DNA of 64,000 nt from Promethearchaeota archaeon (GCA_019058445.1 JAHPZA010000001.1:32001-96000), one strand, 5' to 3'. Shown: positions 19,350 to 54,761, numbered from the stretch's first letter. Program-made: numbers and translations. Notes: a model not told the origin generated them from the sequence alone.

Positions 19350-20023
19350 TCAAAATAATCAGTTATTTTTTTACTTCCAACTTCTTCACGTAGGATTTTT
19401 TTTGTGGTTTCCCAGGTTGTTCTCACAAAGTATGGCACTTTTTTATTCTTTCTAATCCATTGCTTAAGAAAATCAGTAGTTCTTTTATCAGAGGGATATC
19501 CGGAGCCTATATCTCCATATTTCTGCTTTAACTTATCGATTATGGTGTCTCTAGTATCTTTAGCGATTATCGAAGCTGCAGAAACTATTGGATAAATATC
19601 ATCAGCTCTATGTTTAGAAATTATATTTGTTGGTTTATAGTGTAATAACATTTTTATAGCGTTTCCAAATCTTTTTTCATTTACATCTGCCGCATCTACA
19701 TAAATGACATCAGGTTGTAGTTTATTAATAATCTCTGCCATTTTTAATTCTTCTAATCGATTTAAGGTAATTTTATCTTTTTCTCGGTTATCAATTTCTT
19801 TCGCAGAAACTATTATAACCTCAAAAGAATGACAGTTCTGTTTAATTATTTGGGTTAACTGAGCCCTTTTTTTAGGGGAGAGTTTTTTAGAATCTCGTAC
19901 TCCAATTTCTTTTAAAATAGTAATTTTAGATTCATTAAAACAAACACCACATATAACGAGCGGTCCGATGACTGGTCCTCTGCCAGCCTCATCAATTCCG
20001 CATACAAGATTAGCTTTCTTCAA
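19346..20023 (-). CDS. rnhB: Ribonuclease HII
   Basis: GIDEAGRGPVIGP, DSKKL, VSAASIIAK, GSGYPSD; C-terminal PIP-box-like KKITDYF. Confidence 0.97.
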   Translation of the reverse strand: MKKANLVCGIDEAGRGPVIGPLVICGVCFNESKITILKEIGVRDSKKLSPKKRAQLTQIIKQNCHSFEVIIVSAKEIDNREKDKITLNRLEELKMAEIINKLQPDVIYVDAADVNEKRFGNAIKMLLHYKPTNIISKHRADDIYPIVSAASIIAKDTRDTIIDKLKQKYGDIGSGYPSDKRTTDFLKQWIRKNKKVPYFVRTTWETTKKILREEVGSKKITDYFD

Positions 20024-21038
20024 ATAATTCCACGAAATCCTTTTCAGTATCCATCTTTTCTAAATCTTTTAATTTAATTACAGGAACTTTAATATTATCA
20101 CTGGTTAATCTTATTTTATGATTTGATAATTTAAAATCATCATTCACAATGAAAAACGCGTTTTTATGAAAAAATTTCGCAAACGATCTAAGATGATGAA
20201 GGTTTAATTTTGCAACTTTTGTAGTGTCTTGGGAAAGTCCAGATAACACCGGATAAAATTCATCACCGGTATTTAAAACGTAATTATTCGAAGAAATGGA
20301 AAATTCAAAAGGGAGTTGTCCTTTCTTATACCAAATGGTTGAAACTCCAATATCCTCAAAAATATCTTGAAGATGTGATTCAACATCAGTAAGGTCTCGT
20401 TTTTGGGATTTTTCTTCTTGAATGAAGTTCACCTTAATTTGCCATTCGAATACGTTAATTTTTCTAAAAATTGTTTTGTCATCAAGGATTTGGAGTATTT
20501 TCTCAGCAATTTTTTGAGAAGGACGCATCGTTTCATTTTCATAAGAACATAGAGTTCGTTTTGTGACTCCTAACTGTTCAGAGATTTCCTTTCGAGATAT
20601 ACTTTTTTGTTCTCTTATAGATTTCACTAAATTTCCATCAAGGAAAATAATTTTTCCTCCTTTTCTACTCAAGCATGTAGGGTAGATATTACTATTCAGA
20701 ATCATAGATATTGTTCTACTTGAGATAAATGGCAGATCTTCTCGTAGATATATAGTATTATCTTCTAGTTTATTGTAGCGATTCTTGATTCCAATTAGTA
20801 ATGGATGACAGTCCAATAACATACATAAATTCTTTAAATTTTCAATGACAGATTCATTTAAATTATCGATATTAGGAAAAACTTTTACTAAATAAATCAA
20901 GTTATTCTTTTTTATTAAAAAGTCAACACAAAACTTAGTTTTCTTATTTAGTATATCATGAAAAGTTAAAATTTCATAGTTATTTTTCTTAAATAAGGAC
21001 TCAAGACCTTGAAGAATATTATCTACCATTATTTCCAT
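20010..21038 (-). CDS. Conserved archaeal HTH regulator (COG1395-like); chimera of element-supplied 5' part and host 3' part
   Basis: NID motif, LED..IY.R..LP.I, GG..IFLDG, Cro/C1 HTH (SRKEISEQLGVTKRTLCSYE). The first ~127 aa are paralogous to 54204-54605. Confidence 0.85.
   Translation of the reverse strand: MEIMVDNILQGLESLFKKNNYEILTFHDILNKKTKFCVDFLIKKNNLIYLVKVFPNIDNLNESVIENLKNLCMLLDCHPLLIGIKNRYNKLEDNTIYLREDLPFISSRTISMILNSNIYPTCLSRKGGKIIFLDGNLVKSIREQKSISRKEISEQLGVTKRTLCSYENETMRPSQKIAEKILQILDDKTIFRKINVFEWQIKVNFIQEEKSQKRDLTDVESHLQDIFEDIGVSTIWYKKGQLPFEFSISSNNYVLNTGDEFYPVLSGLSQDTTKVAKLNLHHLRSFAKFFHKNAFFIVNDDFKLSNHKIRLTSDNIKVPVIKLKDLEKMDTEKDFVELFEES
20659..20672. repeat. Left junction: CCT core plus arm TTCTACTCAA
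   Basis: Arm 20663-20672 matches the reverse complement of 54204-54213 (TTTTACTTAA) at 8/10. The CCT falls at the codon where protein similarity between the two gene copies ends. Confidence 0.6.
20838..20892. repeat. 55-bp direct repeat, copy 1 (1 mismatch to 54393-54447)
   Basis: ATTTTCAATGACAGATTCATTTAAATTATCGATATT[A/T]GGAAAAACTTTTACTAAA, read directly from the sequence. Confidence 0.9.
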
Positions 21039-21594
21039 TATGTGAATAACATAAATGAATAAAAAATTTTTCTATTTATTTCAAATTATTTTTTGAAATT
21101 GTTGTATATTTAAACTCTACAGATTTCAAATTTTTGAAATATTTCTTAAATTTCTAATTGTTAAATACACTCTTAAAATTAATATACAAAATAAATGCAT
21201 TAGACTAAGAGTAGAAGAAGTTTATAGCACAAATAAACACATCCTAAAAATTACCTATAAATTATTGCCTATTAATATTTTATGCATACTAAAATCAATT
21301 CATAGATGAATTAATCATATGATAAGGAATAATTAATAAATCTGTGAACAATTTAAAAAAACCAATTATACCTTTTCTTTGACATTCCTTCCAGATTCCA
21401 TAAGGTATCCCGTACATTGTGAAAAAACATATAGTAATGTATGGCTAAATCCCGAAGTGTGACCAAATCATCTAAGTTTGTAGTATCTACGAGCTTTTTG
21501 GAGATTTTCTAATTTTTTTTACAATAATCCTAGTAATATTTACAATGGGATTCCTAATTTTAAAAATATTTTACTATGAAAATTTGAAATATAA

Positions 21595-22701
21595 TTAATG
21601 ATTTATTACAAAATCAATGAAAAATTCCATTTGTTTTTTTATAATTTCTACAAACTTAGTTCTTATTAAATTTAGAGAATTAATATTATGAAGTACCTTG
21701 TTCCTCAGACCATAGGTCAAGAGAAAACTATTATGGATTGGGTCATTGGAACGATAATTATTGTTAAGAACATGTATTAATGTATTTTCCAGCTGAGATT
21801 CCTCAAAGTCGGCATTTATACCCCGTTCTGTATTCCAGAGATAAATATCATTACATAATTTAATGTAAATATTATATAATGTGGCATTATTGCTCAATGA
21901 ACCCCTTAATTTTAGCTTACAAGTCGATTCAATCAAAAGACAAATATCACCTATTATGCTTGCTAAAGTCAATTCACCTAAGGTTGAGTTGAAATAATCA
22001 CTCCGTATTTTAAAATATCGGTTTAACTTATACATTCTAGATGTAAAAAAACAAATGTGATCTAACCACTCCATATAATTTGAACTTATTGTAGAAGGAA
22101 TATCTAAGAAATTCGAATAGAAATCATCAAAAGAATGACTACCTAAAAATTGATTTTCTATGAACCTTACAATCGATAAAACAGCTGAATCTTGAAGAGA
22201 TCTATCTAAAGTAATTAATTGAAATGATGGGGTTCTAGGAAAATTATCTTGCCCTCTATGTTTGAGGTGATCTTCTTTTAAACTAAGGTGAATTTTTAAT
22301 AATCCATCTTCAAATTTCGCATGTTTCAATTCATATCTTCCCATATTGTAGTAAGCGGCTCCTTTATGCGTATGGACTCCTACATCATCTTCATATTTAA
22401 TAATTTTTGTTAAAAAATCAACTGTATTCCAATATAGTTTTTTACTGGGGGTTCTTTGGTAATTACAAATTAGAGAGTAAAGAATATCGTCAATTGGGGC
22501 ATAATTAACGCCAATATCGGGGAGAGGAGTTAATGCAGCTTCAAATTGCTCAACATCCCTCTTTATTGGGTGAGGAAATGAGTTATAAAGGGCATAAAAA
22601 TTGCTATCAGTTTGGTGATTTAAATATTGCTGCAAATTTTCTTTCAAATTTTCTGATTGAATATCATCTAATCCAAAACTTCTGAAATCAATATCAATCA
22701 T
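21595..22701 (-). CDS. Putative HEPN RNase with a TPR-like helix
   Basis: C-terminal Rx4H motif LRNKVLH; HKGAAYYNMG TPR-like segment. Confidence 0.6.
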   Translation of the reverse strand: MIDIDFRSFGLDDIQSENLKENLQQYLNHQTDSNFYALYNSFPHPIKRDVEQFEAALTPLPDIGVNYAPIDDILYSLICNYQRTPSKKLYWNTVDFLTKIIKYEDDVGVHTHKGAAYYNMGRYELKHAKFEDGLLKIHLSLKEDHLKHRGQDNFPRTPSFQLITLDRSLQDSAVLSIVRFIENQFLGSHSFDDFYSNFLDIPSTISSNYMEWLDHICFFTSRMYKLNRYFKIRSDYFNSTLGELTLASIIGDICLLIESTCKLKLRGSLSNNATLYNIYIKLCNDIYLWNTERGINADFEESQLENTLIHVLNNNYRSNDPIHNSFLLTYGLRNKVLHNINSLNLIRTKFVEIIKKQMEFFIDFVINH

Positions 22702-23277
22702 TCTTAAATCTAGATTATAAATTATATCTTTTAATTAATATTTTACCTATTCATAATTTATACATTTGAGAAAAAGACCTTCAGTCTTTCGAATTGTTAA
22801 TTACCACAAAATCCATATTCCCCTTTATATGTAAAATATCACCTATCGCGGAATGAATAAGAAGATATTATGAAGTATAAATGGATCTATTAAACTGATG
22901 ATGGTAAAACAAAAAAAGCAAAAAGGAATCATAATATTTTGCAATTAATCATCGTATTTCTTTATTCATTACTAAATGGATATTCATTTATAATAGTATA
23001 AAATATTAAGGTCAAAATTGTTCATAGATGTATGAACTATTACAATAAAACATTTCATCCTTCTATGATTTATTGTATAATCTCATCCCACAAATTTATA
23101 TGCCTTACTTCTATTTAACATTTAAGAAAGAATCAAATAATTCAGTCTTACATTGGATTTCGCTCTGTTAAGACTTTTTTGGAAGCTTAACACTCTCTCT
23201 TTTTTGCATTTTGGATTGGATTTGGATTCCTTTCTTTTCCTATTTTTTAATTAGAATTTATTTAAATAATATTGGAT

Positions 23278-23500
23278 TTTAAAAAGGGCGACTCCTTGCC
23301 ACGCAACCTCAATACAAGGTCAAAAAATAAATAGGGGGAGGAGGGCAAAATCAAAGTGTATTTTCATACACTAACCAAAAGACAAAAATCCAGGGTGTGG
23401 CAGGAGTCATAGTTTTTGGTCTAACAATAATAATCTACAATAGTATTTATAAACTCTTAAGTGAAAATATAATATGGATTGGCAATATTCATTCCTCAGG
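23278..23500. repeat. ~220-bp direct repeat, copy 1 (copy 2 at 40615-40832)
   Basis: Near-identical over the first ~150 bp, then decaying similarity through the TATA-containing flank. Confidence 0.92.
23281..23422 (-). ncRNA. Candidate ~140-nt structured small RNA, copy 1
   Basis: Closing stem GACUCCUGCCAC/GUGGCAAGGAGUC; hairpins AGUGUAU-GAAA-AUACACU and ACCUU-GUAUU-GAGGU; TTTATAAA at 23446-23453; U5 tract at the 3' end; no ORF conserved between copies. Confidence 0.6.
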
Positions 23501-23759
23501 TAAAATATTCCTTCTTTTTATTTACTAAATGAGAAATAAAGCAATATCATTTTACAACTTAAAAGTTATTCAATAGATAATATTAAAGTTCTTATTTCCT
23601 TAATAGCTCTTATAATTTTGAATTAGAAAAGCAAAAAAATATTTATTTACTTAAATATAATTTTGTAAAGCCATTTATTATATGAATACATAAAAAAAAT
23701 CCATCCAATTTAAAAATATTGAAATCTATTGTAAACAATACAAATGAAGTGATATTATT

Positions 23760-24869
23760 ATGATATATCCAGAAACGATTGAAGTAAGCGATGTTAAAAG
23801 GATAGAGAGTCATGCTAATATAATATTATTGCCATCGGAGTTTTATAAATTTATAAATATTGAAGGTTTTAAAACTGTGTTTTTCAAGAACAGAGAACTA
23901 TTTGTGTTTAAAGATGGTGTATATATTGGGACACCGATATTAAATAATTATAAAACCTATGAGGAACTCGCAATAAAAATTGAATCGTTGCTGGAAAAAG
24001 GATTTAAAACACCCATTGAAATTTTAGAAGGATATCTTTTTGACTTAGAGGATTATAATTTATATTTAGAATTTAAGGAGAGTAGCTTTAAAAGATCGGT
24101 TTCACTTTCCGGAAATTTAAGAAATATAAACCGATCTGATTTTTCCCGTGAATATGAACTATTTTTAGAAGCTAAAAAATTTGGAAGTACTGAAAGAAGT
24201 ATTTTTCAAGAAGCTAAGAATGTTGGAATCCCCACATTTGAAGAATATACCAAATTCAAAGAGAGTGATTTTTACTATGGAACTCCTTCAAATTTTAATA
24301 GAAATAAAAATACTTATATTGAAAAGTATAGGGAATTCGTAGGAGCATCAAAAGGGGGTTTTATATCAAGAGATCAATATCTTGAAGCTAAAATGAAGGG
24401 ATTTAGCAATAAAGAAATTTATGATAAATTTATTAAAAGTGGTTGTAAAACTAAACAAGAATATGAAAATTATTTACCTTACATTGAAGATTTACCGAAA
24501 ATACTTGAACCAATGGGAGAAGATATCTTACATACTTTAAGAGAGGCAGATGAATTTTATAATAGTAAAAAATATGGAGAATTTTATAAAAAAAGGTATT
24601 TAATAATAGAAAACATTTCTAAAAGAGCTTGTGAAGAAATTCTTCAAAAAAGACCTAAAAATACAGTAATTGAGGAAATTTTGAATGAATTAGAATTAAC
24701 CACTAAGACTAAAATTGTAAATAAAGATAAAATGAAAAAGTATAGAGAATTGAGGAATGATGTAACTCATGAATTAAAGAATCCAATCACTAGAGAAATT
24801 GCAGATAATGCACGTACTTTTTTTGATGAATTATATACCAACTTAAAAGTCACACTTGAGAAAAATTAA
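23760..24869 (+). CDS. Repeat-containing protein with C-terminal HEPN-like domain
   Basis: Short EA(K)xxGF/I...Y repeats in the middle; LRNDVTH Rx4H motif near the C-terminus. Confidence 0.55.
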   Translation: MIYPETIEVSDVKRIESHANIILLPSEFYKFINIEGFKTVFFKNRELFVFKDGVYIGTPILNNYKTYEELAIKIESLLEKGFKTPIEILEGYLFDLEDYNLYLEFKESSFKRSVSLSGNLRNINRSDFSREYELFLEAKKFGSTERSIFQEAKNVGIPTFEEYTKFKESDFYYGTPSNFNRNKNTYIEKYREFVGASKGGFISRDQYLEAKMKGFSNKEIYDKFIKSGCKTKQEYENYLPYIEDLPKILEPMGEDILHTLREADEFYNSKKYGEFYKKRYLIIENISKRACEEILQKRPKNTVIEEILNELELTTKTKIVNKDKMKKYRELRNDVTHELKNPITREIADNARTFFDELYTNLKVTLEKN

Positions 24870-25029
24870 TATAAACAATCCTTTTTAAAAAAGAAAAACA
24901 GCTTTTATTCCATTCTCCTTGATAATTAAAGTCCCATCGTAGTCCCACTCTCATTTCTAACGGGATTAAGAAAAGAATAAAGAAAGTTTTTCTATTAAAA
25001 ATAGAAAGTCATAAAAAATAGTTAAAAAA

Positions 25030-25632
25030 TTACTGTCTAAAATTTATTTTTAGAATGTCTGAGAAATCTAATTTTTGGTTTAGATTTCCCCGAAAATATT
25101 TTCTTCTAGTGTAATTATGCTTCCAATATTTTCTAAGGTTCTCTAAAAATTTATCTATAATTTTAACTCCATTTTCAGGAATAATATGTCCTGGAAAAGC
25201 TCCAAATAAATCTGGTCGAAAAAATTCACCTTCTTTAAAAGAATGCTTTTCAAAATAACCTCTCTTATGCAGTATATATTTTTCTCCATTAATATAGAAA
25301 TTTACGTGAAAATGAGTTTTATTATTACTAAATAGTCCTAAAAATTTTCCACACTCACTATAATTTTGGACAAGAATATCACTATAAAAATATTTATCAA
25401 TTCGGTTCTTTTTAAGAACCTCAATTATTTTTACTCGCTCTGAATCATCAAAACTTTCATTCTTCAGTTTATGATTCGCTATTATAGTTTTATATTCATA
25501 AAAGATTAATTTTTCAATAATTTCATAATAATTCCTAACTCGTTTAGTTAAGAGCCGATCATCCATAAAATGATCCCAAAACACGATTCCTATGGCGATA
25601 ATACCAATAATTCCACTGATATAATATAACAA
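25030..25632 (-). CDS. Hypothetical membrane-anchored protein
   Basis: N-terminal hydrophobic helix. The frame stays open upstream to about 25716 with a second hydrophobic helix, so the true start is uncertain. Confidence 0.5.
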   Translation of the reverse strand: MLYYISGIIGIIAIGIVFWDHFMDDRLLTKRVRNYYEIIEKLIFYEYKTIIANHKLKNESFDDSERVKIIEVLKKNRIDKYFYSDILVQNYSECGKFLGLFSNNKTHFHVNFYINGEKYILHKRGYFEKHSFKEGEFFRPDLFGAFPGHIIPENGVKIIDKFLENLRKYWKHNYTRRKYFRGNLNQKLDFSDILKINFRQ

Positions 25633-25930
25633 ATTAAATAATATTCCTAAAACAATTGAACATATAACAAGTATTATAAGAAATAATGGAGAAACATTTT
25701 CTCTTTTAATGAACCTTCACCCTTTTAGATACACAATTATATTTTCTAATTTTCAAGGATATAAAGAAAACACACCTATTTAAATGTAGTAAGAAGGATG
25801 TTTATTTGTATTGAAGTCTATTAATCAATAAATAAGTATATTAAATATTATTAACATGAAATTCTATTCTTGATATAATAAATGTTATTTTATCACAAAA
25901 TCATTTTTCACATGATAAAATCCAGAAATT

Positions 25931-28900
25931 ATGACTAATCCAACAATTTATGAAGTCGCCAGCAAATTAAAGCCATCATATAAGTATATTGATTTTAGAG
26001 CAGCATATTATAAAGATGAAAATAATAATTTGAAGCATATTGTTTCAGTTTTCAGATTTACTAATAAAGAGTGGGATGATATCGATTTAATCCATACTAA
26101 CTTAAAAGCAAATTTTGAGAATAGCGATTTATTTCATATTGAATTCGAGATTTTATCACTTGATCAATGGGAAAGCAAATGGAACGAAATTAATGATATG
26201 CTTTTAAGTATTCAGAAAAATTTTAATTTAAATCAATTAAAATTAGATAAAAATATAAGAAATAGGAGATATACTCCTTGGATTTCAGAAAATGATTTAG
26301 AATTTAACTCTATCCAATTTAATATATTGATAGAAAGTCCCCAAGCTCATCATAATAAATTCCAATTTCTATTAGGTCATGAAGATTTACGTAGTAAGGG
26401 ATATGAGTCTATATATCCAATTATTTCCAAAGAATTACAAATAAAAGAATACAATATAAACACTCCTTTATATTCAACCTTTATTTTTCCAATATATTCA
26501 AATATTTCTAATTTAAATTTTACAAATAGATATCTTGTAGGTGATATCGAATTTAATGAAATTTATCAAAACTCTCGTATTTTTATTGAATATTATCTTA
26601 GAGGGCAATCAATAGGAAGAATTGGAGAATTTTTAATAGAAGACCGTAAGGATGAGATCCAAGATGAAAACTCCATACTGAATAAGAAATTACATTTCAG
26701 AATATTTATAGATCAGAAAGAACTTGAAAATGAACCACTTAATTCTCTATTATTAATAAAATTTTATTTTCAGCCGTTAAACTTGAATGTATTAGAATAT
26801 GAATCCTATTATGATTCTATAAGAACACAGATTAAAAATATAGACATATTACCTCAAGATCTCCTAAAAGTTATAAATCCTATATTAGAATTCAACCTTA
26901 TAGAAAGAAGGGAGTTTCATGAAAAATCTAAGAAATATATAAAAGAATTAAACTTGGGAGAAATAAAACTAAAATTCCAAATTTTAAAGTCAAATATTGA
27001 ATGGCTTGAAAACAATGAAAATAAAAAGATACTCAATGATTTTTTTATAAGCGCTGCCAATCAAAATAATGTAGGATATTTCAATGTGTTCCGAGAATTA
27101 ATAATATTTATATTTGATAGCACCATTAAGCAGAAACTCATTGAAGATAATGATTTAATTTCGAGAATAAATGATTTTATCATCCAGTTTAATATTATTG
27201 CTTCATATGATTATAAATTATATTCCTATAATGAATCTTTAGAAAAGATTCATGATAAAATAAAATACATTTATGATAAATATTTTAGGAGAGAGCCAAA
27301 ATGTCACTCAATAGTAGATAACTATTTTTTAGAAACTTACAATATTGAATTTCCAAATTTATTTTTAGAATGTCATTATGCAATAACAGAAGATATGGAT
27401 TGTGTAGTACATCTGATTTACAATAATCCTAAACATTTCGATTATAATAATATTTATATACATTTTTGGATTTTTACAGGTAAAAATAAAGAAAACATCT
27501 GGGCAGATCTAGATAAAAATACACTTGGGAATATTAGTAGGTTTATTAATGAAATACTTAATTTACATTTGATTGAACTCAAATCAAAGATTGATATTCC
27601 CTATCAATTTAAAATTGGACCGTCTATTAAAAAAGAGCAATTGTCTGAGGAAGATTTATTATGGATAAAACAAGATCGATTTTCTCTTGTAAAATGGAAA
27701 TTTGAGGGAAAAGATTATGATTTTAAAAGGTTTAATATATTTGTTGGTAAAAACAATAGTGGCAAAACTTATGCCTTAGAAAAAATATATTTAGAAAGGG
27801 AATCATTAAAAATAGATAATCCTTCAATTAGAGATAATTTTAAGGACAATTACAGACCTCATGAATCAATTGAGTTTTTCTTTATTCCGAAATCTAGAGT
27901 TTTAGATAGTCATATAGGAAAAAGAAAGAATCCAATAAATGCTCTTATCAATTTTTTTCAATCATTAGATAAGCTAAAAAGCAATCCAATATATGAGAAT
28001 ACTCAAGCGAAAGAATTTAGCGAACAGTATGAAGATTATAGGATGAGTAACATTTGGAAAATCCCTAATTTTTTACAGTTAATTGATTTATGCTCTTACG
28101 ATTATAAAAATGATTCCCGACTAGAATCTGGGGATATTCAGCTAATTAACAGCAATCAGGGAGAGATTTTATTTAGGCATTTGGAAAAGACTTATCAAAA
28201 ATGGGTTGACAAAATTGAGCATTTTTTCCCAGATATTCGAATTAATCGTGTAAAAGATAAAGGGGTTGAGGGTGATATTCAAATAGAAATAGAAGATAAA
28301 GTTTTAAATCGCAAAATCTATAATTGGGAAGAATACGGTTCTGGAACCCACGAATTATTTAATTTGATTTTTCTTATTGAATTTTTAAAATGTGTTCCTG
28401 CGATTAATTCCAATCAATTCAAATTATTACTAGCAAATCAATTAGACTTAACAAATAAATCAGATTATTTTATTGCACCAGTCAGAAATAATCGTGTAAT
28501 ATTAATTGATGAACCTGAAATTAGCCTGCATCCTTCACTTCAAAAGGATTTTTTTCAGTATTTATATGACTCATCTCAATTAATTCAAATATTTATCGCA
28601 ACGCAATCGTCTCATTTCCTTGAGATTAGAGGATTTGAAGAAAAACTGAATAAAGATATAGCTGTTTTTTTATGCAAGAAAGAATCCAAATTATCCAACA
28701 AATTTTTAAAAATCCCAATAAATAAATTAAATTACATTAAAATAATTGATGAGATTTTTAATTATAATCCCCTAGATACAGCCTTTTACCTTTCTAAAAA
28801 TAATTATCAGCACCTTTTAAATGCAGATTTCGAAGTATTCGAATTGGATATGATAAAAAGATTACAAAGTAATAGATCAGATTACGACTCTAATTTTAAT

Positions 28901-43743: not shown

Positions 43744-43831
43744 TAATAAAAATGAAATAAAATTAGATTACATCCCCGAAAAAATCACATTTAGAGAAAA
43801 GAACTCTTTTTGGATTTTAACTTCTTTTCTT

Positions 43832-45533: not shown

Positions 45534-45712
45534 ATTTGAAAAAAAGGATATTGATGAGGTTAAGGATGAGAACAGTATTCTTTTAATAGAAGAAAAATAA
45601 GGGATAATAAAAATGCTAAAGAATGAAAATTAAAGTGAAAGAGAATATTAAAACAGCATTATAAGCTATAAATATAAAAAGAACAAAAATAGCGAAAAAC
45701 AGCGAAAGACGA

Positions 45713-46282: not shown

Positions 46283-47083
46283 ATGTTTCCCAATAAAAAT
46301 CCAATAGTCAGTAGTGAGAGCAGGGGAATTGAAAAGCTACAATTTAATACTAAAGATTTTTTAGAAATAGATGAAAGGTATGAATCAGAAGTACAGCTTT
46401 ATTCAAAGAAAGTAGAGGTTTTAACCTCTCTACTATATCGAGCAATATCACTTTTGGAGTCACATCAATTACGGATAAACCCAACTCAAAAAATCTACAT
46501 AGAAACAGGAGTTCCTGCAATTAATCCCAAACTAAATACCCAATTAGCACAATTAAAGTTTTTTGAAGTCAATTCAACACTTACAAAACATATGTCAGCA
46601 TGGTTTAATCTAATTCAATTTTATTCGAGATGTTTATATACCTCTTATAATGACAAAAAATTTTTGCGAATGAAAGCTCAAACGTGGAACTCAGAGGTAA
46701 AAGACATGCACCCGCTTATGAACTTTTATTTAGGCGGACAATTCGGAGAACGAGTAAAAAACGAGGTTAGAATTTCAGATGGTATGGTAGATCACGTAGT
46801 TGATGGGATTCCGATTGAAGATAAATTGCTCAAGAAGTCCAAACACGAAGATATTGAATTAGTTATCTCTGAATTATTCCATGAACATTTAGATCAAGTC
46901 AATAGACAATCGGGGATTAGCGGATTTTCCATTTTATGCGTGGTAGATATACGCACCGATGTCAAACAGAATAGAATTAAGAGTTCTCCGTTAGCAAAAT
47001 GTTTTCGGATTTTTTTTGAGAATAATTGTTGGTATGCCACTTTTGTATTTCAGGCGTTTACCAAATCCCCCTCACAAATTTAA
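46283..47083 (+). CDS. Putative PD-(D/E)xK nuclease
   Basis: NEVRISDGMVDHVVDGIPIEDK (E...D...ExK); SD-like GAGGGGG before ATG 46283. Confidence 0.55.
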   Translation: MFPNKNPIVSSESRGIEKLQFNTKDFLEIDERYESEVQLYSKKVEVLTSLLYRAISLLESHQLRINPTQKIYIETGVPAINPKLNTQLAQLKFFEVNSTLTKHMSAWFNLIQFYSRCLYTSYNDKKFLRMKAQTWNSEVKDMHPLMNFYLGGQFGERVKNEVRISDGMVDHVVDGIPIEDKLLKKSKHEDIELVISELFHEHLDQVNRQSGISGFSILCVVDIRTDVKQNRIKSSPLAKCFRIFFENNCWYATFVFQAFTKSPSQI

Positions 47084-47105
47084 AAATAACGGTAAGGATA
47101 GAAAA

Positions 47106-47435
47106 ATGCATTTAAGTATATTAGGAGAATTACCACCGCCCAAGAAAGAAAAAAAAGAGGAAAAACACAAAATCGCCGAAATTTTTAAACAATTTGCGAT
47201 ATGCATTCGGGGCACAATTGCTAACAAATATACCTTCGCAGAATTAGAAGCAATGGCGTTAGAACAGGCAATAAGGGTAAACAGAATAAAAGAAGAAATG
47301 TTAGATGCGGGGAAGAATAGATTATACCGTTCTATTTCTCGTCTTACCAGAAGAGTAAATAGGTATAGAAGAAAGAGAAGTATATTAAGAAATGAAAGAA
47401 AAAGAATGAGGAGATTAAAGAGTAGTGTATTATAA
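47106..47435 (+). CDS. Basic hypothetical protein
   Basis: Arg/Lys-rich C-terminus. Start set at MHLS. Confidence 0.5.
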   Translation: MHLSILGELPPPKKEKKEEKHKIAEIFKQFAICIRGTIANKYTFAELEAMALEQAIRVNRIKEEMLDAGKNRLYRSISRLTRRVNRYRRKRSILRNERKRMRRLKSSVL

Positions 47436-47655
47436 AGATAAAAGATCTAAATTCAGAGCAAGACTATCAATTAAACGAGCTAAAAAGCGTGAGTGGGAAC
47501 AGAAATTAGATTTTATTATTCAAGTCGTAGTTATAGGTGGGCAATCGTGTAATCCGATTTTGGTCGAAGAATTGATAAATGAAATAAAAACTGTAAATTT
47601 GGAGGGAAAAGAAAGGATTATCGAGGATTTGAAAATAATACTTCTCGATTTATGA
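47425..47655 (+). CDS. Hypothetical protein
   Basis: 76 aa; overlaps the previous stop codon. Confidence 0.45.
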   Translation: MYYKDKRSKFRARLSIKRAKKREWEQKLDFIIQVVVIGGQSCNPILVEELINEIKTVNLEGKERIIEDLKIILLDL

Positions 47656-47806
47656 TACTACCATATTATTAACAGGCGGGGAAGGTAAAGAGTTGCTCAA
47701 ACTAAGTTTCTTATATTCGCAAGATATTAAAGAGCGGGGTAGCCTCTTTATCCCTAAAGCCGAATGTAATAAAAAATAAAAAGAGGGTATATGTAGAATA
47801 TCTAAA

Positions 47807-48385
47807 ATGACCGATTTTACCGATTCAATGGAGTTTTTTGTAGTATATCTTATAGTGAGCTTAATTTTATTCGGATTAGCTATTTTCTTCTACATTACCT
47901 ATAAGAAAGGACACGAATGGAGGGGATTAAAAGTTATCATTTGTATCCTAATTGCTATATCTCTAATATTTTACATGGTAAGCTCATTTACCAATTTAGA
48001 GGGAACACAGATCCCACCGAGAGCAGATTTTAAATTTGTATTTACCATGACTTTTTTCTTTCTATTGTTAATTTCCGTCTATTTGTTTCTTTCTTTATTT
48101 TTCAAAGAAGATGATAATTACTATTCGGAGCAGGAAGATGATACAGAAGAAAGTGAAATGGAAGATATAGAATATACGCATAAAATTAACTCTCATACAA
48201 TATCGTTTGAGCCGAATTATGAGGGTGAGAACAGTATTGAAAACAAATTTTACCCAGAAAGCGAACAATACAGATTTACCGCAAATAAAGAAGATCTCTC
48301 TAAAGACAAGGATTTACAGGAGTTAGAACAATTTGTGAATACTCTATTTGAGAAGCAAAAAAGAGGGAAAACAGATGACAATTGA
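47807..48385 (+). CDS. 3-TM membrane protein with acidic C-terminus
   Basis: Three hydrophobic helices, then an acidic linker. Confidence 0.6.
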   Translation: MTDFTDSMEFFVVYLIVSLILFGLAIFFYITYKKGHEWRGLKVIICILIAISLIFYMVSSFTNLEGTQIPPRADFKFVFTMTFFFLLLISVYLFLSLFFKEDDNYYSEQEDDTEESEMEDIEYTHKINSHTISFEPNYEGENSIENKFYPESEQYRFTANKEDLSKDKDLQELEQFVNTLFEKQKRGKTDDN

Positions 48386-48695
48386 TATAAGAGTAAGAAA
48401 TTTGGAAGACACATTATACGCAATTAATTTATTCATTGATAAACACATTTCTTATATAAATACCAGAAAAGTAAGGAAGTATTTAAATGTAGATTCGTCT
48501 AACAGGTCAAAGATTAACTTTATAGGGCGTTCTCTCCAATTTTTACAAAAGAAAGGGATATTAGAAGAAGTACATCGGAGTAAAACCATTCATTATAAGC
48601 TATTAAGGAAGGAGAAAATAGATATACAAGAATTTATCGAACAAATGGAAATACATACATCCTCTACAAAAAAGAAATTATTTTTAAAAAATTAG
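48375..48695 (+). CDS. Winged-helix DNA-binding protein
   Basis: INTRKVRKYL...IGRSLQFLQKKGILEEV....IHYKL. Confidence 0.55.
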   Translation: MTIDIRVRNLEDTLYAINLFIDKHISYINTRKVRKYLNVDSSNRSKINFIGRSLQFLQKKGILEEVHRSKTIHYKLLRKEKIDIQEFIEQMEIHTSSTKKKLFLKN

Positions 48696-48714
48696 TAGGA
48701 AGGAATTAAAAAAT

Positions 48715-49122
48715 ATGTTTGAGCAAAAAGTATTAGTAAGGATTTTAAACTGCACTAAGTTTGATTTGAGGGAAATTGAGAATTTTTGTATCAAATTCAA
48801 GAAAAAATACGGAGAGGATGTATTTGGTAAACTCATAAGTGATTTATACGAGATACGACATACATTTTTCCATTATAACAATACCATGAATGAGCTATGG
48901 TATTATCTACTCTGTCACGTTGTTAAAAAGTATATCGAGCCACAGGGAATTAAGTATTGTTATGATGAGTTTTGCGATCTGAAAGAGAACTTTACTAATC
49001 CTACATTTCGATTCAAATACTCGGATTTTAAAGATTTGGAATTGGAATTTATGAGAGCAGGGGTAAATACTAACGTTTTGCATAAATTAATTAATGATTT
49101 AAATTATTTTTTAGAACGATGA
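48715..49122 (+). CDS. Hypothetical protein
   Basis: 135-aa ORF with an AGGAAGGA SD-like sequence upstream. Confidence 0.5.
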   Translation: MFEQKVLVRILNCTKFDLREIENFCIKFKKKYGEDVFGKLISDLYEIRHTFFHYNNTMNELWYYLLCHVVKKYIEPQGIKYCYDEFCDLKENFTNPTFRFKYSDFKDLELEFMRAGVNTNVLHKLINDLNYFLER

Positions 49123-49175
49123 TAAGATATAGGATTGAATAGAATCCAATTAAAAATTTAAAAAGGTAATAACTA

Positions 49176-49952
49176 TTGATAGAAGACCAAATTAATTATA
49201 ATACTGAACAGGACAAGAATATCATTTTTAAAGATGTTATGCTCATTAATATTACCGTATCCGATTATCAGTCAATAACTCTCAGGCATAAAAAATTATC
49301 ATCCGAGAAGGAAAAAATAATGATAAACAGGGCATTAGATTTTGCGATGGATGTGTCAGACAAAGATTTTAGAGATGAGTCGGTAATTCATATCGTAAAG
49401 CCACGAGTAGAGGCAGATTTTTTTATGAAAATGGGGTTTGCTCATTTTTCGAGTGCTTCTGACCTATGCATTTATATAAAGTGTCAAAGTCTTGCTCGGT
49501 TTGAATTTTGGTGTAAAATCATCAGATCTTTTATCATAGATATTCGTTTTAAAACTATTTTCTTGGATTGGGGATATTCGGAACAGCTAAGAATCGAGGA
49601 TGTAAAAAATGAACTTGGTGATTGTATCCCTTATCTCAATACCCAATTTGAAATTGATACGTGCGAAATTGATTTTGATATTTCCGATGATTCAGACGAT
49701 ATACCCGAATACCTAAAAACCAAGCTAGATAACGATCCCGCATTAAGAGAATTTACTGAGGATTTTGCGTACTGTCCTATCTGCGGAGATGAGAATGATA
49801 TAGAAATGCTTGTGGAAGTTTACGAGGCAGATAAATCACTATTTAAAGAAAAGCGTGATAAGTTGTGTGAGTTAAAAAACCTTGATGCTGTTAGAGGAAT
49901 ACCCATCAAAATCGGGATTCCTTGTTGCGGGTGCTTCTACAACATTTTTTAA
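49176..49952 (+). CDS. Hypothetical protein with C-terminal Zn finger
   Basis: CPICG...CCGC. Confidence 0.5.
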   Translation: MIEDQINYNTEQDKNIIFKDVMLINITVSDYQSITLRHKKLSSEKEKIMINRALDFAMDVSDKDFRDESVIHIVKPRVEADFFMKMGFAHFSSASDLCIYIKCQSLARFEFWCKIIRSFIIDIRFKTIFLDWGYSEQLRIEDVKNELGDCIPYLNTQFEIDTCEIDFDISDDSDDIPEYLKTKLDNDPALREFTEDFAYCPICGDENDIEMLVEVYEADKSLFKEKRDKLCELKNLDAVRGIPIKIGIPCCGCFYNIF

Positions 49953-50122
49953 TGACTAAATGATAATTAATTTTTTGAATAAAACATTTTTAAATAACCA
50001 TTTCTAATGAGGAGAATAGGAATATTTACACACAAATTTTGAAAAATGATCAATAGAAAATATTATAAAAAATCGCTTTTCACCTTAAATTAAAAATATT
50101 ATAATGAGGTGTAAGAAAAAGT

Positions 50123-50362
50123 ATGAATAATGAAGACCAAAGAAATAAAAGCAATGATAATAAAAAGAACAACTCTATCGATGAGGAAGAACTTAAAGAA
50201 TTAATTCGGGAAGTTCTTTGTGAAGATTTCGGGATGTGTTCCATAGATCAAAAAATTGAACTATTAGACAAGCCAAAACATTATACGGGCATTATTGGAA
50301 GCAATCATTTTGAAGAAATCACAGAAGAAGAATTTAATCGAAGAAGTAAATCCAAACAGTAA
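50123..50362 (+). CDS. Hypothetical protein
   Basis: 79 aa; GAGGTG SD upstream. Confidence 0.45.
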   Translation: MNNEDQRNKSNDNKKNNSIDEEELKELIREVLCEDFGMCSIDQKIELLDKPKHYTGIIGSNHFEEITEEEFNRRSKSKQ

Positions 50363-50394
50363 AATTCCAAGATGATATTCAACAAAATTTTATG

Positions 50395-50448
50395 GACTTC
50401 AAAGTATAGACTTTAAAGTAAATCAGAAAATATGTGGACTTTGAAGTC
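50395..50448. repeat. Three quasi-palindromic 11-12-mers GACTTYRAAGT
   Basis: GACTTCAAAGT 50395, GACTTTAAAGT 50409, GACTTTGAAGTC 50437. Confidence 0.55.
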
Positions 50449-50671
50449 AACAAACTTGAGGAATACTTTATAGATCTATAAAATGTTTGATATATTTAAA
50501 GAAAAAATGTTATGGCATACATTTAAAAAGAGATTTTACTATAAAATAGGTAGAGGATTTTGAAATTTGTAATAGACTTGTTGATTGCTCACAATGAAAT
50601 TTCGTTTTAAAAAAATCTTGTTGGCAAACATTTATAAATACCCAATATAAAAATAAGGTTTGATATAGCTT

Positions 50672-51010
50672 ATGGAACGAGAAAACTTTTCACTATATGG
50701 TAATGGAGATTTGCTAACATCTCATAGATATCTTGTTTCAAACCTAAGTTTTAAAGCAAGAAACGGTATAGCTACAATCAATTTACCTTTCAGTAAAAAG
50801 TTTCATTTACGGCATAAAACACAAATCGTTCCGTTGAGTTTATCTATGATGGAGTTAAACTCCAATGAGTATAAACTATTTGAGGCATTTTCACTTTTTA
50901 GGTATCAACAAGTAGATCTAAATTTTTTTGAATATAAGTCTATACTTTTTTGGTATCAAAATTTGAAAGACGAGCAAAAGTTTATAAAGACATTGGTATT
51001 TAGGAATTGA
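50672..51010 (+). CDS. Hypothetical protein
   Basis: 112-aa ORF downstream of a TTTATAAA box. Confidence 0.4.
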   Translation: MERENFSLYGNGDLLTSHRYLVSNLSFKARNGIATINLPFSKKFHLRHKTQIVPLSLSMMELNSNEYKLFEAFSLFRYQQVDLNFFEYKSILFWYQNLKDEQKFIKTLVFRN

Positions 51011-51077
51011 ATATAAGAATAAAATTTAATTAAAAATAGCTATAAAAATATTAAAATTATAATGTGAGGGATGTAAA

Positions 51078-51392
51078 ATGTATGATAATGATAATAAAAA
51101 TAGTAAAAAGTCTAAAATTGCTAGAGTTTTAGCAGAAATAAAAGTTATTATAAGGAAAAATAAAGATTTAGGACTTTCCGAAGAGCTAATAAGGAAGCAG
51201 AATGCAAGCGACTGTTTCATTCTAGATTATCTCCGAGGCGAGAATGTTGAGTTTGAAAGCGTGGAGGAAGTTAATCAGACCGTAGAGGATCTTCGTGTCA
51301 TACTCTCTGAGGAAATTATAAGATATAAACCAGAAGGACAAATTAATAAGCTTCCTCATTGCGATTATGATCCAACTAAAATTAAACGTTAG
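51078..51392 (+). CDS. Hypothetical protein
   Basis: 104 aa; GAGGG SD; directly upstream of the 932-aa gene. Confidence 0.5.
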   Translation: MYDNDNKNSKKSKIARVLAEIKVIIRKNKDLGLSEELIRKQNASDCFILDYLRGENVEFESVEEVNQTVEDLRVILSEEIIRYKPEGQINKLPHCDYDPTKIKR

Positions 51393-51412
51393 TACGGAAA
51401 GAGAGTGATATA

Positions 51413-54211
51413 ATGGAAGATGAAAAGAAGCCAAAAAAGAGATCTCCCTTAGATAATTACGAAAGCGAAATGAAAAAAGATATGTTTGGACAAGTTGTCA
51501 AAAAGAAAGCAGGAGACACACCGAAAAAGCAGGAGGCACAACAAAAGAAAAAAACCCCTTCAAATTCATCCCCGCTAGACACATACGAAAGCAAAATGCT
51601 TCAAGATAAAGCTTCTACGGTTGTAAAAACACCAGATAATAATATTTCGATTGGACAGGGATACTGTTCAAATGAATCTATTTTAAATGCGTATGAAACA
51701 GAAATGTTAAATCAACACGTTTCGAACACCTTAGATCCTAATCGATCTGGAAGTAAGAAACCGAATAAAAAGAAAGCTCCATCTGACGAATGGAAAATCG
51801 TCATTTATGAAGCAGGATTAAAATATATAAGAGCATTAAAAGAGAACTTATATATCGATGACAAAATTATTAAATTGATTACTAGCAAGAAAAATATTTC
51901 AAAAATATTTAATCATCTCTTCATAATCTTCAATGAAAAGAGAGGCAGAAGAACTTTAGGTGTATTTTTACTTATTTTTTATGGTTTTTATGATTCTGAT
52001 AATTTTGAGGATTTACTCAACAAATTAAAGGAATTTTCAGATATGAGTTATGATAGACTCTCAGAATATGTTAAGAAACTGATTGATGACTTTTACGAGG
52101 TCACTGGTCAAGATCTTTATCTTATATGGATGGAGAAAGCGAAAACACAAGAACTTGAAAAAGCACAGAATTTCAAGGAGTTAATTAATAATGATGTTAA
52201 TATAATTCCAAATGAAAGACAAACTTTAGTGAATAACAAAATGGAAACACCAAACATAAATATTCCTAATTTTCGAGTGAGAGTAAAAAACCATTTCGAT
52301 TATATTTTAAGTTCAATTGAATGTACATCTAATCAAAAAGAAAATATTTCACTTAAATCTACCAATATACTAAAGGAGTTTATTTCGAGAGCAAAAAATA
52401 ATGAATTTACTATCTCTAGTAGAGCAGATCCTAAAATAATTGCTACCAGTATAGTGTATACAGCAATCGTATCAAATGAAAATATGCCAGAGATTAACAT
52501 GACTCAAGTAGCTAAATTAGGAGGTATAAAATCACCAAGAATTACATATTACTATAATATATATTTTAGAGAATTGTATCCTCGAATAACGTTTGACTCA
52601 ACCGTATACAAATTAACACCGATTAAATTAATTTTTTCGTTCTATTTTTTTCAACTGCTTTTAAATAGAAATATTAAGTTTTCCAATCAAATTCAAATAA
52701 TAAAAAAGGATATTTTGAATAACACAAATCTTCCAAAAGAATTAGATGAGGTAAATGTTAGAGAACTCCAAGAGATTGCGAAAAATTATCCCGATGTTTT
52801 TACTAAATATTTCAGCGATATGTTCAATATAGTGAGATATTTAATGGAATTAGCTACACTCTATAGAATAATTGGTGCTTCTATAAAAATCCTACCAATC
52901 GCAAAAATGTTTCATAAGAGAGGTATTAATTTAACACAAACGGTTGACGGTTTTCATCGATCTTTAACAGAAATTTTCGATTTTTTAAAAGAAAAGAATT
53001 TTAAGTTTTTTCCTAAACGAGTAGAATCAACAGACACTCCCAAAAAAGAGAGACCTGAGAAACAACGTCAGATGAAAAGAATTGTTGGAACAAGAATTAA
53101 ACTATATATAATAAATCATATTTATAACGGGAAATATTTTAAAAAAGGAAGAGAAGGCTGTCCAAAATGCTTGAATAAGGGTTTAAAAACGGATATTACT
53201 AGGATTAAGGGTTTGGAATTCCACCATCCTACTGAAATGAGAGAGATGCAATATACTGCGGAAAATCTCTATCAGTTATTTATTAACAATCAGCTTAATC
53301 CCTATTTTCTAGACGATCTGATAGAGGCAATGCAGAATGAAAAGGTACAATTATTATGTACTAACCACCATAACTTACTACATCATGAGGATTACCATGA
53401 TTTTAAATACTTAATTAATTGGGCAAACATATTTTCTTATCCAGCAGAGATCATCCGCTTATTAATCAGAGTTGCGGTAGATAATTTTCATAAAACTAAA
53501 GACTTAACTATTGACGAAAAAAAAGGGAAGCGAAGAAATTTACGATCTAAAATAAAGAAAAAATATGTTTTAGAGTTTTTTAATGGAAGATATTGCCCTG
53601 CTTGTGGAAAATTCAACACATTGGATCATTTAACAGCATTCCATTTTAGTCATATCGATCAACGTAACGAAGATATTGATATTCTTAGATTATTTCGAGA
53701 TAAATCATGTTCTAAAATAGTTAAAGCATTAGTAAATGAGGGTGGTGGATTTGTTTGTGGAAATTGTCATACAGTTTTTCACTTTGATAAATATATCCCC
53801 CTTTTAGAAGAGATTTTTGAGGATAAAGCAATAATAAACAATATTATAGAAGATTATGAAAATGTCAGAGATAAATATTCCCCTATATATAACGCCTCAG
53901 TTGGAGACCCATTAAAAACATCCAAAGCTCAGTACGGCAAGTTTCAAAACTATCTAATGTCTATTTATGCAATTTCAAATTCTGGTAATGACGTTACACA
54001 TTCTACTTTAAGCGAATATATGGGGTTGGCAATACCATCTATATTCAAGTTTTTTAAACAAAATAAGAAGCTAGTTAGCAAGTATATAGATATTAACATA
54101 GGAAGTTCAGGTTGGAACGGAGAGGAAACTAAATATTCTTTAAATGCAGACGGAGAAGAACTAATAAGGGTAATTAATCACTTTAGGGACTATTTCAGTT
54201 CTATTAAGTAA
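51413..54211 (+). CDS. 932-aa protein: TFB-like cyclin/HTH repeat, two Zn-binding HNH-like domains, C-terminal winged helix
   Basis: ADPKIIATSIVYTA...INMTQVAKLGGI...ITYYY resembles TFB repeat 2; CPKC..LEFHHP..LLCTNHHNLLH; CPAC..FHFSHI..FVCGNCHTVFH; VTHSTLSEYMGL...YSLNADGEELI. Confidence 0.7.
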   Translation: MEDEKKPKKRSPLDNYESEMKKDMFGQVVKKKAGDTPKKQEAQQKKKTPSNSSPLDTYESKMLQDKASTVVKTPDNNISIGQGYCSNESILNAYETEMLNQHVSNTLDPNRSGSKKPNKKKAPSDEWKIVIYEAGLKYIRALKENLYIDDKIIKLITSKKNISKIFNHLFIIFNEKRGRRTLGVFLLIFYGFYDSDNFEDLLNKLKEFSDMSYDRLSEYVKKLIDDFYEVTGQDLYLIWMEKAKTQELEKAQNFKELINNDVNIIPNERQTLVNNKMETPNINIPNFRVRVKNHFDYILSSIECTSNQKENISLKSTNILKEFISRAKNNEFTISSRADPKIIATSIVYTAIVSNENMPEINMTQVAKLGGIKSPRITYYYNIYFRELYPRITFDSTVYKLTPIKLIFSFYFFQLLLNRNIKFSNQIQIIKKDILNNTNLPKELDEVNVRELQEIAKNYPDVFTKYFSDMFNIVRYLMELATLYRIIGASIKILPIAKMFHKRGINLTQTVDGFHRSLTEIFDFLKEKNFKFFPKRVESTDTPKKERPEKQRQMKRIVGTRIKLYIINHIYNGKYFKKGREGCPKCLNKGLKTDITRIKGLEFHHPTEMREMQYTAENLYQLFINNQLNPYFLDDLIEAMQNEKVQLLCTNHHNLLHHEDYHDFKYLINWANIFSYPAEIIRLLIRVAVDNFHKTKDLTIDEKKGKRRNLRSKIKKKYVLEFFNGRYCPACGKFNTLDHLTAFHFSHIDQRNEDIDILRLFRDKSCSKIVKALVNEGGGFVCGNCHTVFHFDKYIPLLEEIFEDKAIINNIIEDYENVRDKYSPIYNASVGDPLKTSKAQYGKFQNYLMSIYAISNSGNDVTHSTLSEYMGLAIPSIFKFFKQNKKLVSKYIDINIGSSGWNGEETKYSLNADGEELIRVINHFRDYFSSIK

Positions 54212-54216
54212 AACCT
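54204..54216. repeat. Right junction: arm TTAAGTAAAA plus CCT core
   Basis: Inverted partner of 20663-20672; contains the stop codons of both the 932-aa gene and the truncated regulator. Confidence 0.6.
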
Positions 54217-54392
54217 CTGCGAGCGAGTATGTGCGGATATTTCTGTTCTTTGAGTACATTCTCTAACGTCTTTAATGTTATGAAGGGTAATTCCTCTCTT
54301 ATATAAATTGTATTATCTTCTAGATTTTGATATCTGTTCTTTATTCCGATTAAGAGTGGTTTTGAATTTAATAAAGCAGACATAAGTTTTAT

Positions 54393-54447
54393 ATTTTCAA
54401 TGACAGATTCATTTAAATTATCGATATTTGGAAAAACTTTTACTAAA
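54393..54447. repeat. 55-bp direct repeat, copy 2
   Basis: 54/55 identical to 20838-20892. Confidence 0.9.
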
Positions 54448-54761
54448 AAGATGGAATTATCTTTTTTTACCAAAAAATCAAAACAAAACTTAGTTCTTTT
54501 GGTAGATTCCTCGAAATGAAAGGTTTCGAAATGTTTTTCACTTAAGAGGGCAGCAATTCTTTGTATTATGCTATCAACTGTCAATATCCTAATAGTAACA
54601 AGCAAAATCTTATAAAAAAGTTTTTCTGTTTAAGGTAATAATATTAGTTGGTTTATTTCTAATCAACTATTAAAGTAGAATCCTAGTTTTTCGCATCATA
54701 TTTACTCGTTAATTTTTTTATTAAAAATTCATTTTAATAAATATTTAAAAATAGGTAAAAG

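Follow-up and report, generated by a model that had tools for sequence, protein, structure and literature searches.

An integrase-less 33.5-kb island splits a conserved Lokiarchaeial regulator gene and supplies a foreign N-terminal domain

Mobile elements that repair the gene they enter are known: the integrative and conjugative elements (ICEs) SXT/R391 enter the 5′ end of prfC, phage 21 and e14 enter the 3′ end of icd, and all restore their target and use tyrosine integrases. Archaeal integrated mobile genetic elements (iMGEs) also belong here, those of Thaumarchaeota integrating in the 3′-distal parts of protein genes, and thaumarchaeal ICEs additionally encode plain TFB homologues next to ParB (PMC6563490). 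In phage T4, the free-standing HNH homing gene mobE is associated with “intronless homing” and co-conversion of flanking markers (PMC2790892). The mobile elements of Asgard archaea are little known, and those described in two published accounts use tyrosine or viral integrases and enter tRNA genes or short attachment (att) motifs (PMC8813620, PMC11529989); aloposons integrate at tRNA genes and HeimV1 has a viral integrase (PMC8813620), and the iMGEs of Atabeyarchaeia have tyrosine integrases (PMC11529989). Here we analyse a 64,000-nucleotide stretch of a Promethearchaeota archaeon (GCA_019058445.1 JAHPZA010000001.1:32001-96000; the window, from the genome G000), in which a horizontally acquired 33.5-kb island at 20659-54213 (C1:52,659-86,213 in contig numbering) interrupts a conserved Lokiarchaeial regulator gene at the boundary between its N-terminal, PDDEXK_19-type domain and its helix-turn-helix (HTH) domain. 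The regulator is kept whole as an in-frame chimera of foreign residues 1-127 and host residues 128-342.

The gene, described in the original prediction as COG1395-like, occurs twice on the minus strand, as a full open reading frame (ORF) of 342 residues (20010-21038) and as an N-terminal fragment of 133 residues (54204-54605), in agreement with the coordinates and common strand proposed there. The identity between the two N-terminal copies, which had been put at about 57% over about 123 residues, is 70/125 by BLASTP (56%, E 3e-47; residues 3-127 of the full regulator against 8-131 of the fragment), and alignment places the end of their similarity exactly where it had been read, at YPTCLSRKG/GKIIF in the left copy versus YPHILARRG/FT and a stop in the right. 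Pfam locates HTH_3 at residues 138-186 of the 342-residue regulator, and PF26553 (PDDEXK_19) is annotated on the N-terminal part of its database homologues. The locus is laid out as follows, in window coordinates.

20659..54213, no strand: inserted island of 33,555 bp, recognised by its absence from 14 related loci, its low GC content and in-silico removal.
20010..20658, minus strand: host-derived 3′ part of the regulator, residues ~128-342, with HTH_3 and the C-terminal region; assigned by HTH_3, identity and the C-terminal tree.
20659..21038, minus strand: insert-borne replacement N-terminal domain (the module), residues 1-127, PDDEXK_19-type; low identity to the relatives G007 and G003, membership of a clade with 100/99 support, PF26553 on homologues.
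21039..21086, minus strand: promoter-proximal stretch of the module, with a TATA-like T-rich box ~25-30 nt before the ATG; upstream homology, putative promoter.
54204..54605, minus strand: remnant, the ancestral host N-terminal domain, an intact 133-residue ORF beside the native promoter region shared with MAT; identity, tree and dN/dS.
19346..20023, minus strand: rnhB (RNase HII), host flank; Pfam RNase_HII, E 2.5e-52; 80-88% identity to the closest relatives, same synteny.
54762..56006, plus strand: S-adenosylmethionine synthetase (MAT), host flank; Pfam AdoMet_Synthase, 1.7e-144; adjoins the regulator in 14 related loci.

A six-frame search found the regulator in 36 of 41 related genomes, and the order fibrillarin, rnhB, regulator, MAT, with the start of the regulator facing MAT, is contiguous in 14 of 19 loci from other genomes. 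Because gene order is unbroken in these 14 loci, the low-GC DNA between 20659 and 54213 is an insertion; GC content is 0.21-0.26 between the two ORFs and 0.29-0.32 in the last 9 kb, with 0.31-0.36 in the flanks. The empty rnhB-regulator-MAT locus that had been expected in relatives is therefore found, and the empty allele can also be rebuilt as had been proposed: joining 20658 to 54214 in silico through one CCT yields an uninterrupted 346-residue ORF, a definition from which the bounds of the island follow. Over its full length this ORF is 85.8% identical to the regulator of G007, the closest relative, the chimeric ORF reaching 73.2%. The right border recurs outside this assembly: an independent Logan contig from the probable source run covers 52100-54422 with zero mismatches. 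Island and flank are also present, at 99% identity or more, in another sample from that study (Logan), and no contig with a loose end at 54216 was among those listed. The in-frame joining through CCT stands, whereas neither the CCT core nor the dyad of the excised form exceeds chance. This 3-nt border repeat, the only one common to both borders, is not above chance in AT-rich DNA, and no att repeat above chance was found there. A terminal inverted repeat or dyad of the excised form was rejected, its 8/10 matches being equalled by 42% of random end pairs drawn from the island. The likeness between the ends of this island and those of a second one in contig C9, described below (TTTACTTAATAGAAC versus TTGCCTTAATAATTC), was also indistinguishable from AT-rich chance and was left unused.

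The results below all point to the left N-terminus being foreign and the right fragment being the ancestral host domain. Against G007 and its sister genome G003, also a close relative, identity is 88.9% and 86.5% for the fragment and 86.5% and 82.2% for the left C-terminal part (residues 128-342), yet only 54.0% and 52.4% for the left N-terminal 127 residues. Synonymous divergence (dS) between the two N-terminal copies is ~2.2 and thus saturated, so that a recent duplication within the genome is not the explanation. Against G007, the remnant has a dS of 0.43 and a dN/dS of 0.17, the functional C-terminal part, much alike, 0.51 and 0.135; the remnant was thus constrained until recently, or still is. 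A database search with the left N-terminus recovered four proteins (P0153-P0156) at 67-76% identity, the bulk of matches lying at or below 56%. Maximum-likelihood analysis of the N-terminal domain unites the left copy with that of G006 and P0153-P0156 in one clade (100/99) and places the right fragment with G007/G003 (100/98). The C-terminal tree splits the same proteins, placing G000 with G007 (100/95), G006 with G001/G005 (99/95) and P0154 with G018/G021, so that members of the left-type clade are fused to C-termini of at least four host clades. The original prediction had expected the right copy to track the host and the left to group with other elements. The first part holds, and the left copy does group with N-termini of other lineages, including insert-bearing loci; this grouping is not exclusive to elements, as P0155 has a left-type N-terminus in an unbroken MAT-regulator-rnhB-fibrillarin locus of another lineage. 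Rather than being peculiar to inserts, the module is thus an allele that occurs naturally in another lineage. The domain swap itself was correctly foreseen, some 127 foreign codons being fused in frame to the host HTH and C-terminal part.

A 54-nt near-identical block inside the duplicated domain was considered as an att core or gene-conversion tract and rejected; the same nucleotides are kept in G007 and in the left-type P0155, and the block is therefore a conserved motif rather than a trace of gene conversion. Homologous recombination inside the domain is ruled out as the integration route for this event, the remnant being host-like and the module foreign-like throughout. The displaced host domain, an intact 133-residue ORF, lies behind the native promoter region, and a free PDDEXK_19 domain may be made beside the chimera.

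Upstream of the left copy, homology to the left-type genes P0155 and G006 extends only 38-48 nt 5′ of the ATG, and this stretch of the module aligns with the T-rich box upstream of the host copy. A homologous minimal promoter thus appears to travel with the domain, its function being predicted from sequence. The earlier claim of a new promoter and rewired expression stands as regards the carried stretch; its newness does not, since the ~40-48 nt are homologous to the native promoter region of left-type genes, and rewiring is therefore not established. In the window and in relatives, the start of rnhB overlaps the stop of the regulator by 14 nt and for this reason probably depends on the regulator's promoter. 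Thanks to the chimeric regulator, the overlapping rnhB keeps an upstream gene.

At the right border, the island ends in a gene for a large protein, hereafter the hallmark protein, whose ORF stops 2-5 nt from the border and overlaps the stop of the remnant.

51413..54211, plus strand: 932-residue hallmark protein with a disordered N-terminus, a TFB-like cyclin fold, two HNH-like zinc motifs and a winged HTH (wHTH); AlphaFold 2 model, fold matches and motifs.

A search of 1.84 billion proteins with its conserved core (residues 256-932) gave 191 representative relatives. In an AlphaFold 2 model built from 31 homologues (mean predicted local distance difference test score, 87.7), model residues 32-138 match the TFB core of Pyrococcus woesei (1ais_B, Z 13.0, root-mean-square deviation 1.9 Å over 95 residues; VIA-align), and some family members have TFIIB-type zinc ribbons. 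Model residues 587-664 match winged helices of the IdeR/DtxR type (Z 9.7; VIA-align), with which a PDB profile search agrees (wHTH, E 8e-4). Between these parts lie two modules, CxxC..HH..CxNHH and CxxC..H..CxNCH, that are invariant in the alignment, and in the models a helix follows each of the strands bearing the conserved His and Cys, the order seen in a beta-beta-alpha fold. Pfam gives no match for the protein of the window itself; motif 2 of one member, P0039, scores 23.2 bits with Pfam HNH, above the gathering cut-off of 21.4, and is the single one to pass. The HNH assignment accordingly rests on the motifs, the secondary structure and this one profile match. In fold searches with the HNH region a few Cas9 HNH chains surfaced at a non-significant E of 2-4, and a language model places phage HNH+HTH proteins nearest to the C-terminal half (0.85-0.87), which we take as a lead only.

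The hallmark protein is found in 8 of the 41 relatives, which all belong to a single family-level group; G000 has three copies of it and G006 gives five matches, and all 11 further genome loci of the family come from Promethearchaeota/Loki or archaeal metagenome-assembled genomes (MAGs). The sister genomes G007/G003 and G001/G005 lack the gene at the regulator locus. It is thus sporadic among close relatives and recurs at a defined site in a conserved gene, as homing genes do. Homologues at 61-72% identity lie again at the same regulator in G006:C98, L062 and L063. The regulator of G006:C98 has a C-terminal part 77-78% identical to its sisters and an N-terminus at only 29-52%, and a host-type remnant of ~45 residues lies 4 kb upstream with the hallmark gene in between (insert of ~4 kb). 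In L062 a left-type N-terminus stands beside the hallmark gene, and in L063 a G007-like remnant, extending to about residue 33, adjoins the stop of the hallmark gene. More distant homologues (L026, L052, L031) lie between the remnant and the replaced end of other genes. Module and remnant of L026 are 91% identical over 112 residues in a 2.9-kb insert; those of L052, in an alcohol-dehydrogenase (ADH)-like gene whose empty site is in G000 C6, are 66% identical over 64 residues; and L031 shows a C-terminal variant of the arrangement. The end of the remnant is also the end of the module in the window, L026 and L052. Counting the second island of G000, at least five loci besides the window have the hallmark gene between a gene remnant and a replaced gene end. 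The island thus probably belongs to a family of inserts in Lokiarchaeia-type genomes that enter protein-coding genes and supply a replacement for the severed part, and in which the hallmark gene is the sole constant large gene. With related inserts elsewhere, it can fairly be described, much as had been suggested, as an undescribed kind of Asgard element. The main reason for regarding the hallmark protein as the mobility determinant is that its gene is the only sizeable one in the small inserts.

Next to the G006 insert, the neighbouring MAT gene has undergone a second 5′-end replacement: in L022 (G006:C98; 7531-7761, 8085-9419, 9710-10945) it occurs as a 76-residue 5′ fragment and a full copy, 85% identical over 73 residues, which flank a gene for a 444-residue membrane transporter with no hallmark gene between them. 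Downstream of three hallmark homologues, exactly where the host ORF would go on, we observed hairpin-forming inserts of 29-31 nt that part the adjoining piece of the host gene from its remainder (G000 C9:269054-269700, equivalent to L032 ~700-830; L055 12220-12260; L052 12385-12415; L053 ~12150-12185). The insert reads GATTCTCAATTCGCTTCGAATTAGGATTCG in a ChlI-like gene and TCTTGAAAG-AAAA-CTTTCAAGA in the ADH-like gene, and a compensatory change between L052 and L053 preserves the stem. It breaks the frame or adds a stop, and both gene parts are nevertheless intact and conserved. Such an insert may serve as a recognition site, represent a tiny element or act as a device at the RNA level; a bulge-helix-bulge intron (L052, L053 and copy A) was rejected, as there is a single 3-nt bulge and splicing would not restore the frame.

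By its gene content the remainder of the island appears to be a defence-gene cluster (LmuB, PDC-S35, PDC-M34B and an AriA/NsnB-like ATPase, with HEPN and TIR domains). The Pfam scan took in all window ORFs of at least 100 residues.

25931..29911, plus strand: 1326-residue protein with an ABC/AAA_21 ATPase region, AriA/NsnB/PtuA-like; Pfam AAA_21, E 5.7e-10; PADLOC NsnB 4.4e-14, AriA 3.1e-13.
32822..34291, minus strand: HEPN (Swt1-like) protein, with a copy 92% identical in nucleotides in the second island; Pfam HEPN_Swt1, 1.6e-11; PADLOC PDC-M34B, 5.8e-18; blastn.
39745..40521, plus strand: TIR-domain defence protein; Pfam CAP12-PCTIR_TIR, 4.8e-38; PADLOC PDC-S35, 6.4e-83, full length.
41734..43743, plus strand: LmuB-like protein (Lamassu SMC-type ATPase); PADLOC LmuB, 7.5e-21 over residues 11-654.
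45644..48846, no strand: backbone block of five small ORFs, 97% identical in nucleotides to G000 C9:189279-192480; blastn; no Pfam or PHROG match.

One more HEPN match in the cargo is weak and falls below the Pfam cut-off. The silence of PHROGs on the backbone ORFs means that there is no support for a provirus. That no integrase is recognisable had already been remarked, and genome-wide profile scans bear this out for the island. Tyrosine recombinases (PF00589, six-frame, whole genome) occur only at C9:114618 and C6:27026, in neither island; the whole genome has no match above the cut-off to the SSV-type integrase (PF16795), none at E <= 1 to serine recombinases or resolvases (PF00239), no Cas1 (PF01867) and, among DDE transposases, no DDE_Tnp_1 (PF01609), the one DDE family that the scan covered. 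TnpB (PF07282) has eight copies above the cut-off in the genome, all outside both islands. When tested against the hallmarks of tyrosine-integrase and serine-integrase elements, casposons and DDE/TnpB elements, the island shares only an element-borne gene end that restores the target.

The second island of G000, 32.7 kb at ~181.4-214.2 kb of contig C9, shares with that of the window a 3.2-kb block at 97% identity, the HEPN gene (92% of nucleotides, blastn) and an RNA-like repeat (~90%). It splits a conserved methyltransferase-like gene of ~750 residues at GNPPW/YTFRD, with the same polarity to its target as in the window. The RNA-like repeat, of ~235 nt, occurs in the window at 23260-23493 and 40611-40849, and a third copy at C9:198917-199167 is 89-90% identical. 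Beside the split host gene lies a complete gene for an 867-residue N6-methyltransferase-like protein (C9:181460-184063; L038 5460-8063), and in L051 a distant full homologue (32%) adjoins a truncated host gene; these are possibly whole-gene substitutes rather than 5′ modules. Elsewhere in G000, inserts of 1-29 kb are bordered by about twelve more pairs, each on one strand, of a full gene and a fragment of a gene end; most of the fragments are C-terminal, with identities of 50-98% (for example C10:652107-684115, C10:613483-621767, C9:312795-320146 and C4:239143-245501). Genome-wide, 12 of 18 fragment/full-gene pairs have the insertion polarity, which is not significantly above half. Other integrase-less islands may be present in G000, which has only two tyrosine recombinase genes.

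Taken together, we consider it somewhat probable that these islands represent an integrase-less, nuclease-associated insert family that compensates for the gene it splits. In this model, the TFB-cyclin/double-HNH/wHTH protein would be a sequence-specific nuclease that cuts the empty allele and so starts insertion, and joining would fall to host recombination or repair that copies the insert, in a homing-like manner, rather than to a conservative integrase. The replacement module would serve as a device that keeps the target gene working, and the defence genes would be cargo accumulated between the nuclease gene and the module. A homing-like process is favored because there is no recombinase, there are no border repeats and the two HNH motifs are conserved; the absence of att repeats and terminal inverted repeats is as homing predicts. 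Several points weigh against this model. Nuclease activity and target site are predictions, no fold search with the HNH region was significant (best VIA Z 5.7; Foldseek E > 1), and no HNH enzyme is known to join DNA. Remnant lengths in related inserts differ (131, ~45 and ~33 residues), loci vary in where the hallmark gene lies, and which way it points, relative to the module, and the C9 island carries no replacement module and has a junction that is not conservative, with ~5 host nucleotides unaccounted for. Moreover, gene-end duplications without a hallmark gene at their borders (MAT in G006, two more in L052, ~11 more in G000) mean that the duplication signature is not specific to the hallmark protein. 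With the module and remnant of L026 being 91% identical, its occupied junction would nearly recreate the homing target, and the homing model does not account for how the first module-bearing insert arose.

The window junction is conservative within 3 nt, with no host codon lost or duplicated, as would befit site-specific integration and excision of the Campbell type, carried out by a conservative recombinase that has escaped recognition, whether the 932-residue protein or another island protein. The attP site would then lie between the 3′ end of the module and the stop of the 932-residue gene, and the module would be a former attR captured by aberrant excision from another host. Continued excision of the island, with occasional reuse of the old domain, would lead one to expect an intact remnant ORF with a purifying-selection-like dN/dS, as observed; in a circular form the 932-residue gene and the module would flank the junction, the usual place of integrases and att sites; and in L026 and L052, too, remnants end where modules end. 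We nevertheless think such a process unlikely, as neither island contains a tyrosine or serine recombinase or Cas1, the core would be CCT only, with a dyad at chance level, and HNH chemistry has no covalent intermediate. The C9 junction and the differing remnant ends also speak against it, and given the variation in remnant length among related inserts, Campbell-type integration at one fixed site is not established; of the likeness to SXT and phage 21 drawn in the original prediction, the restoration of the gene is what stands.

It is also conceivable, though we judge it improbable, that no dedicated machinery was involved, and that a segment from another Lokiarchaeon, comprising a left-type regulator and its upstream DNA, came in on one or a few occasions. 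Illegitimate recombination facilitated by homology would have anchored it on the conserved HTH/rnhB side, with microhomology making the joint at the other end. The 932-residue protein would then be cargo, for example a TFB-derived regulator or defence nuclease. The 3 nt of junction microhomology, the ordinary left-type alleles in unbroken loci such as P0155, the frequency of gene-end duplications without a hallmark gene and a foreign tract that may extend a few codons beyond the remnant end (GGK versus GGG) are all compatible with such an event. However, the hallmark gene is found, across different MAGs, beside remnant/module pairs that stem from four or more different host genes, is often the sole large gene in 3-4 kb inserts and, as homologues at 61-72% identity, accompanies this regulator on four further occasions. 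Nor would illegitimate joining lead one to expect the coinciding remnant and module ends of the window, L026 and L052, and the hallmark stop lies exactly at the border in the window and L063. Finally, as the genome is a MAG and the two copies share the 54-nt near-identical block, a misassembly joining two strains, or a partial duplication within the genome that later diverged, has to be weighed. Both are effectively excluded by the independent contig bridging the right border and the second sample with island and flank, by the dS of ~2.2, by the closer relatives of the left copy than of the right elsewhere (67-76%, P0153-P0156), and by the block being a conserved motif and the same architecture recurring in G006.

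The island is well bounded and integrase-less, with an empty site in sister genomes, a second island at another gene and small relatives in other MAGs. All of these are tied to one unusual protein, so that with it and the known sites, both empty and occupied, a possibly new mechanism of insertion can be tested directly. The island also catches the horizontal replacement of a single domain in a conserved archaeal regulator while the old domain is still present, and so documents a tangible way for chimeric genes to arise in the lineage closest to eukaryotes, and it shows where at least two defence islands sit in G000 and a possible way in which they were acquired. More tentatively, Lokiarchaeia may harbour an undescribed class of mobile element that employs a TFB-derived double-HNH enzyme in place of an integrase, carries a spare gene part and provides landing pads for defence genes of more than 30 kb. 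If such a class exists, whole protein domains would move between lineages through it, with landing pads for defence islands as a further consequence.

In the literature searched we did not find the combination described, namely no integrase, a TFB/double-HNH/wHTH protein, replacement of a whole 5′ domain, more than 30 kb of cargo and an Asgard host; term searches of the two Asgard papers gave no occurrence of TFIIB in PMC11529989 and none of HNH in PMC8813620. Aloposons, HeimV1 and the iMGEs of Atabeyarchaeia resemble the island in being integrated Asgard elements with accessory or defence cargo, and HeimV1 and the Atabeyarchaeia iMGEs differ from it in their viral and tyrosine integrases, neither of which was found here. 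With SXT/R391, phage 21/e14 and the thaumarchaeal iMGEs (PMC6563490) the island shares its place inside a protein gene, a diverged substitute end, a retained remnant and accessory cargo. It differs from them in lacking both an integrase of the tyrosine or serine type and an identical att core, in replacing a whole 127-residue 5′ domain together with its putative promoter, and in a remnant length that varies among related inserts. Like thaumarchaeal ICEs with their TFBs (PMC6563490), it is an integrated element encoding a TFB-like cyclin fold, with a TFIIB-type zinc ribbon in some members of the family; in contrast to those TFBs, the fold is fused to two HNH-like modules and placed at the border of the insert. 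The resemblance to T4 mobE (PMC2790892) lies in a patchily distributed HNH-type gene beside a host gene with foreign-type adjacent sequence, and in the lack of border repeats. Here, unlike in mobE, the protein combines two HNH motifs, for which cleavage is predicted only, with a TFB-like cyclin fold and a wHTH, and the recipient's part of the gene is not converted and stays behind as a remnant, next to inserts that reach up to 33 kb and carry defence cargo in an Asgard host.

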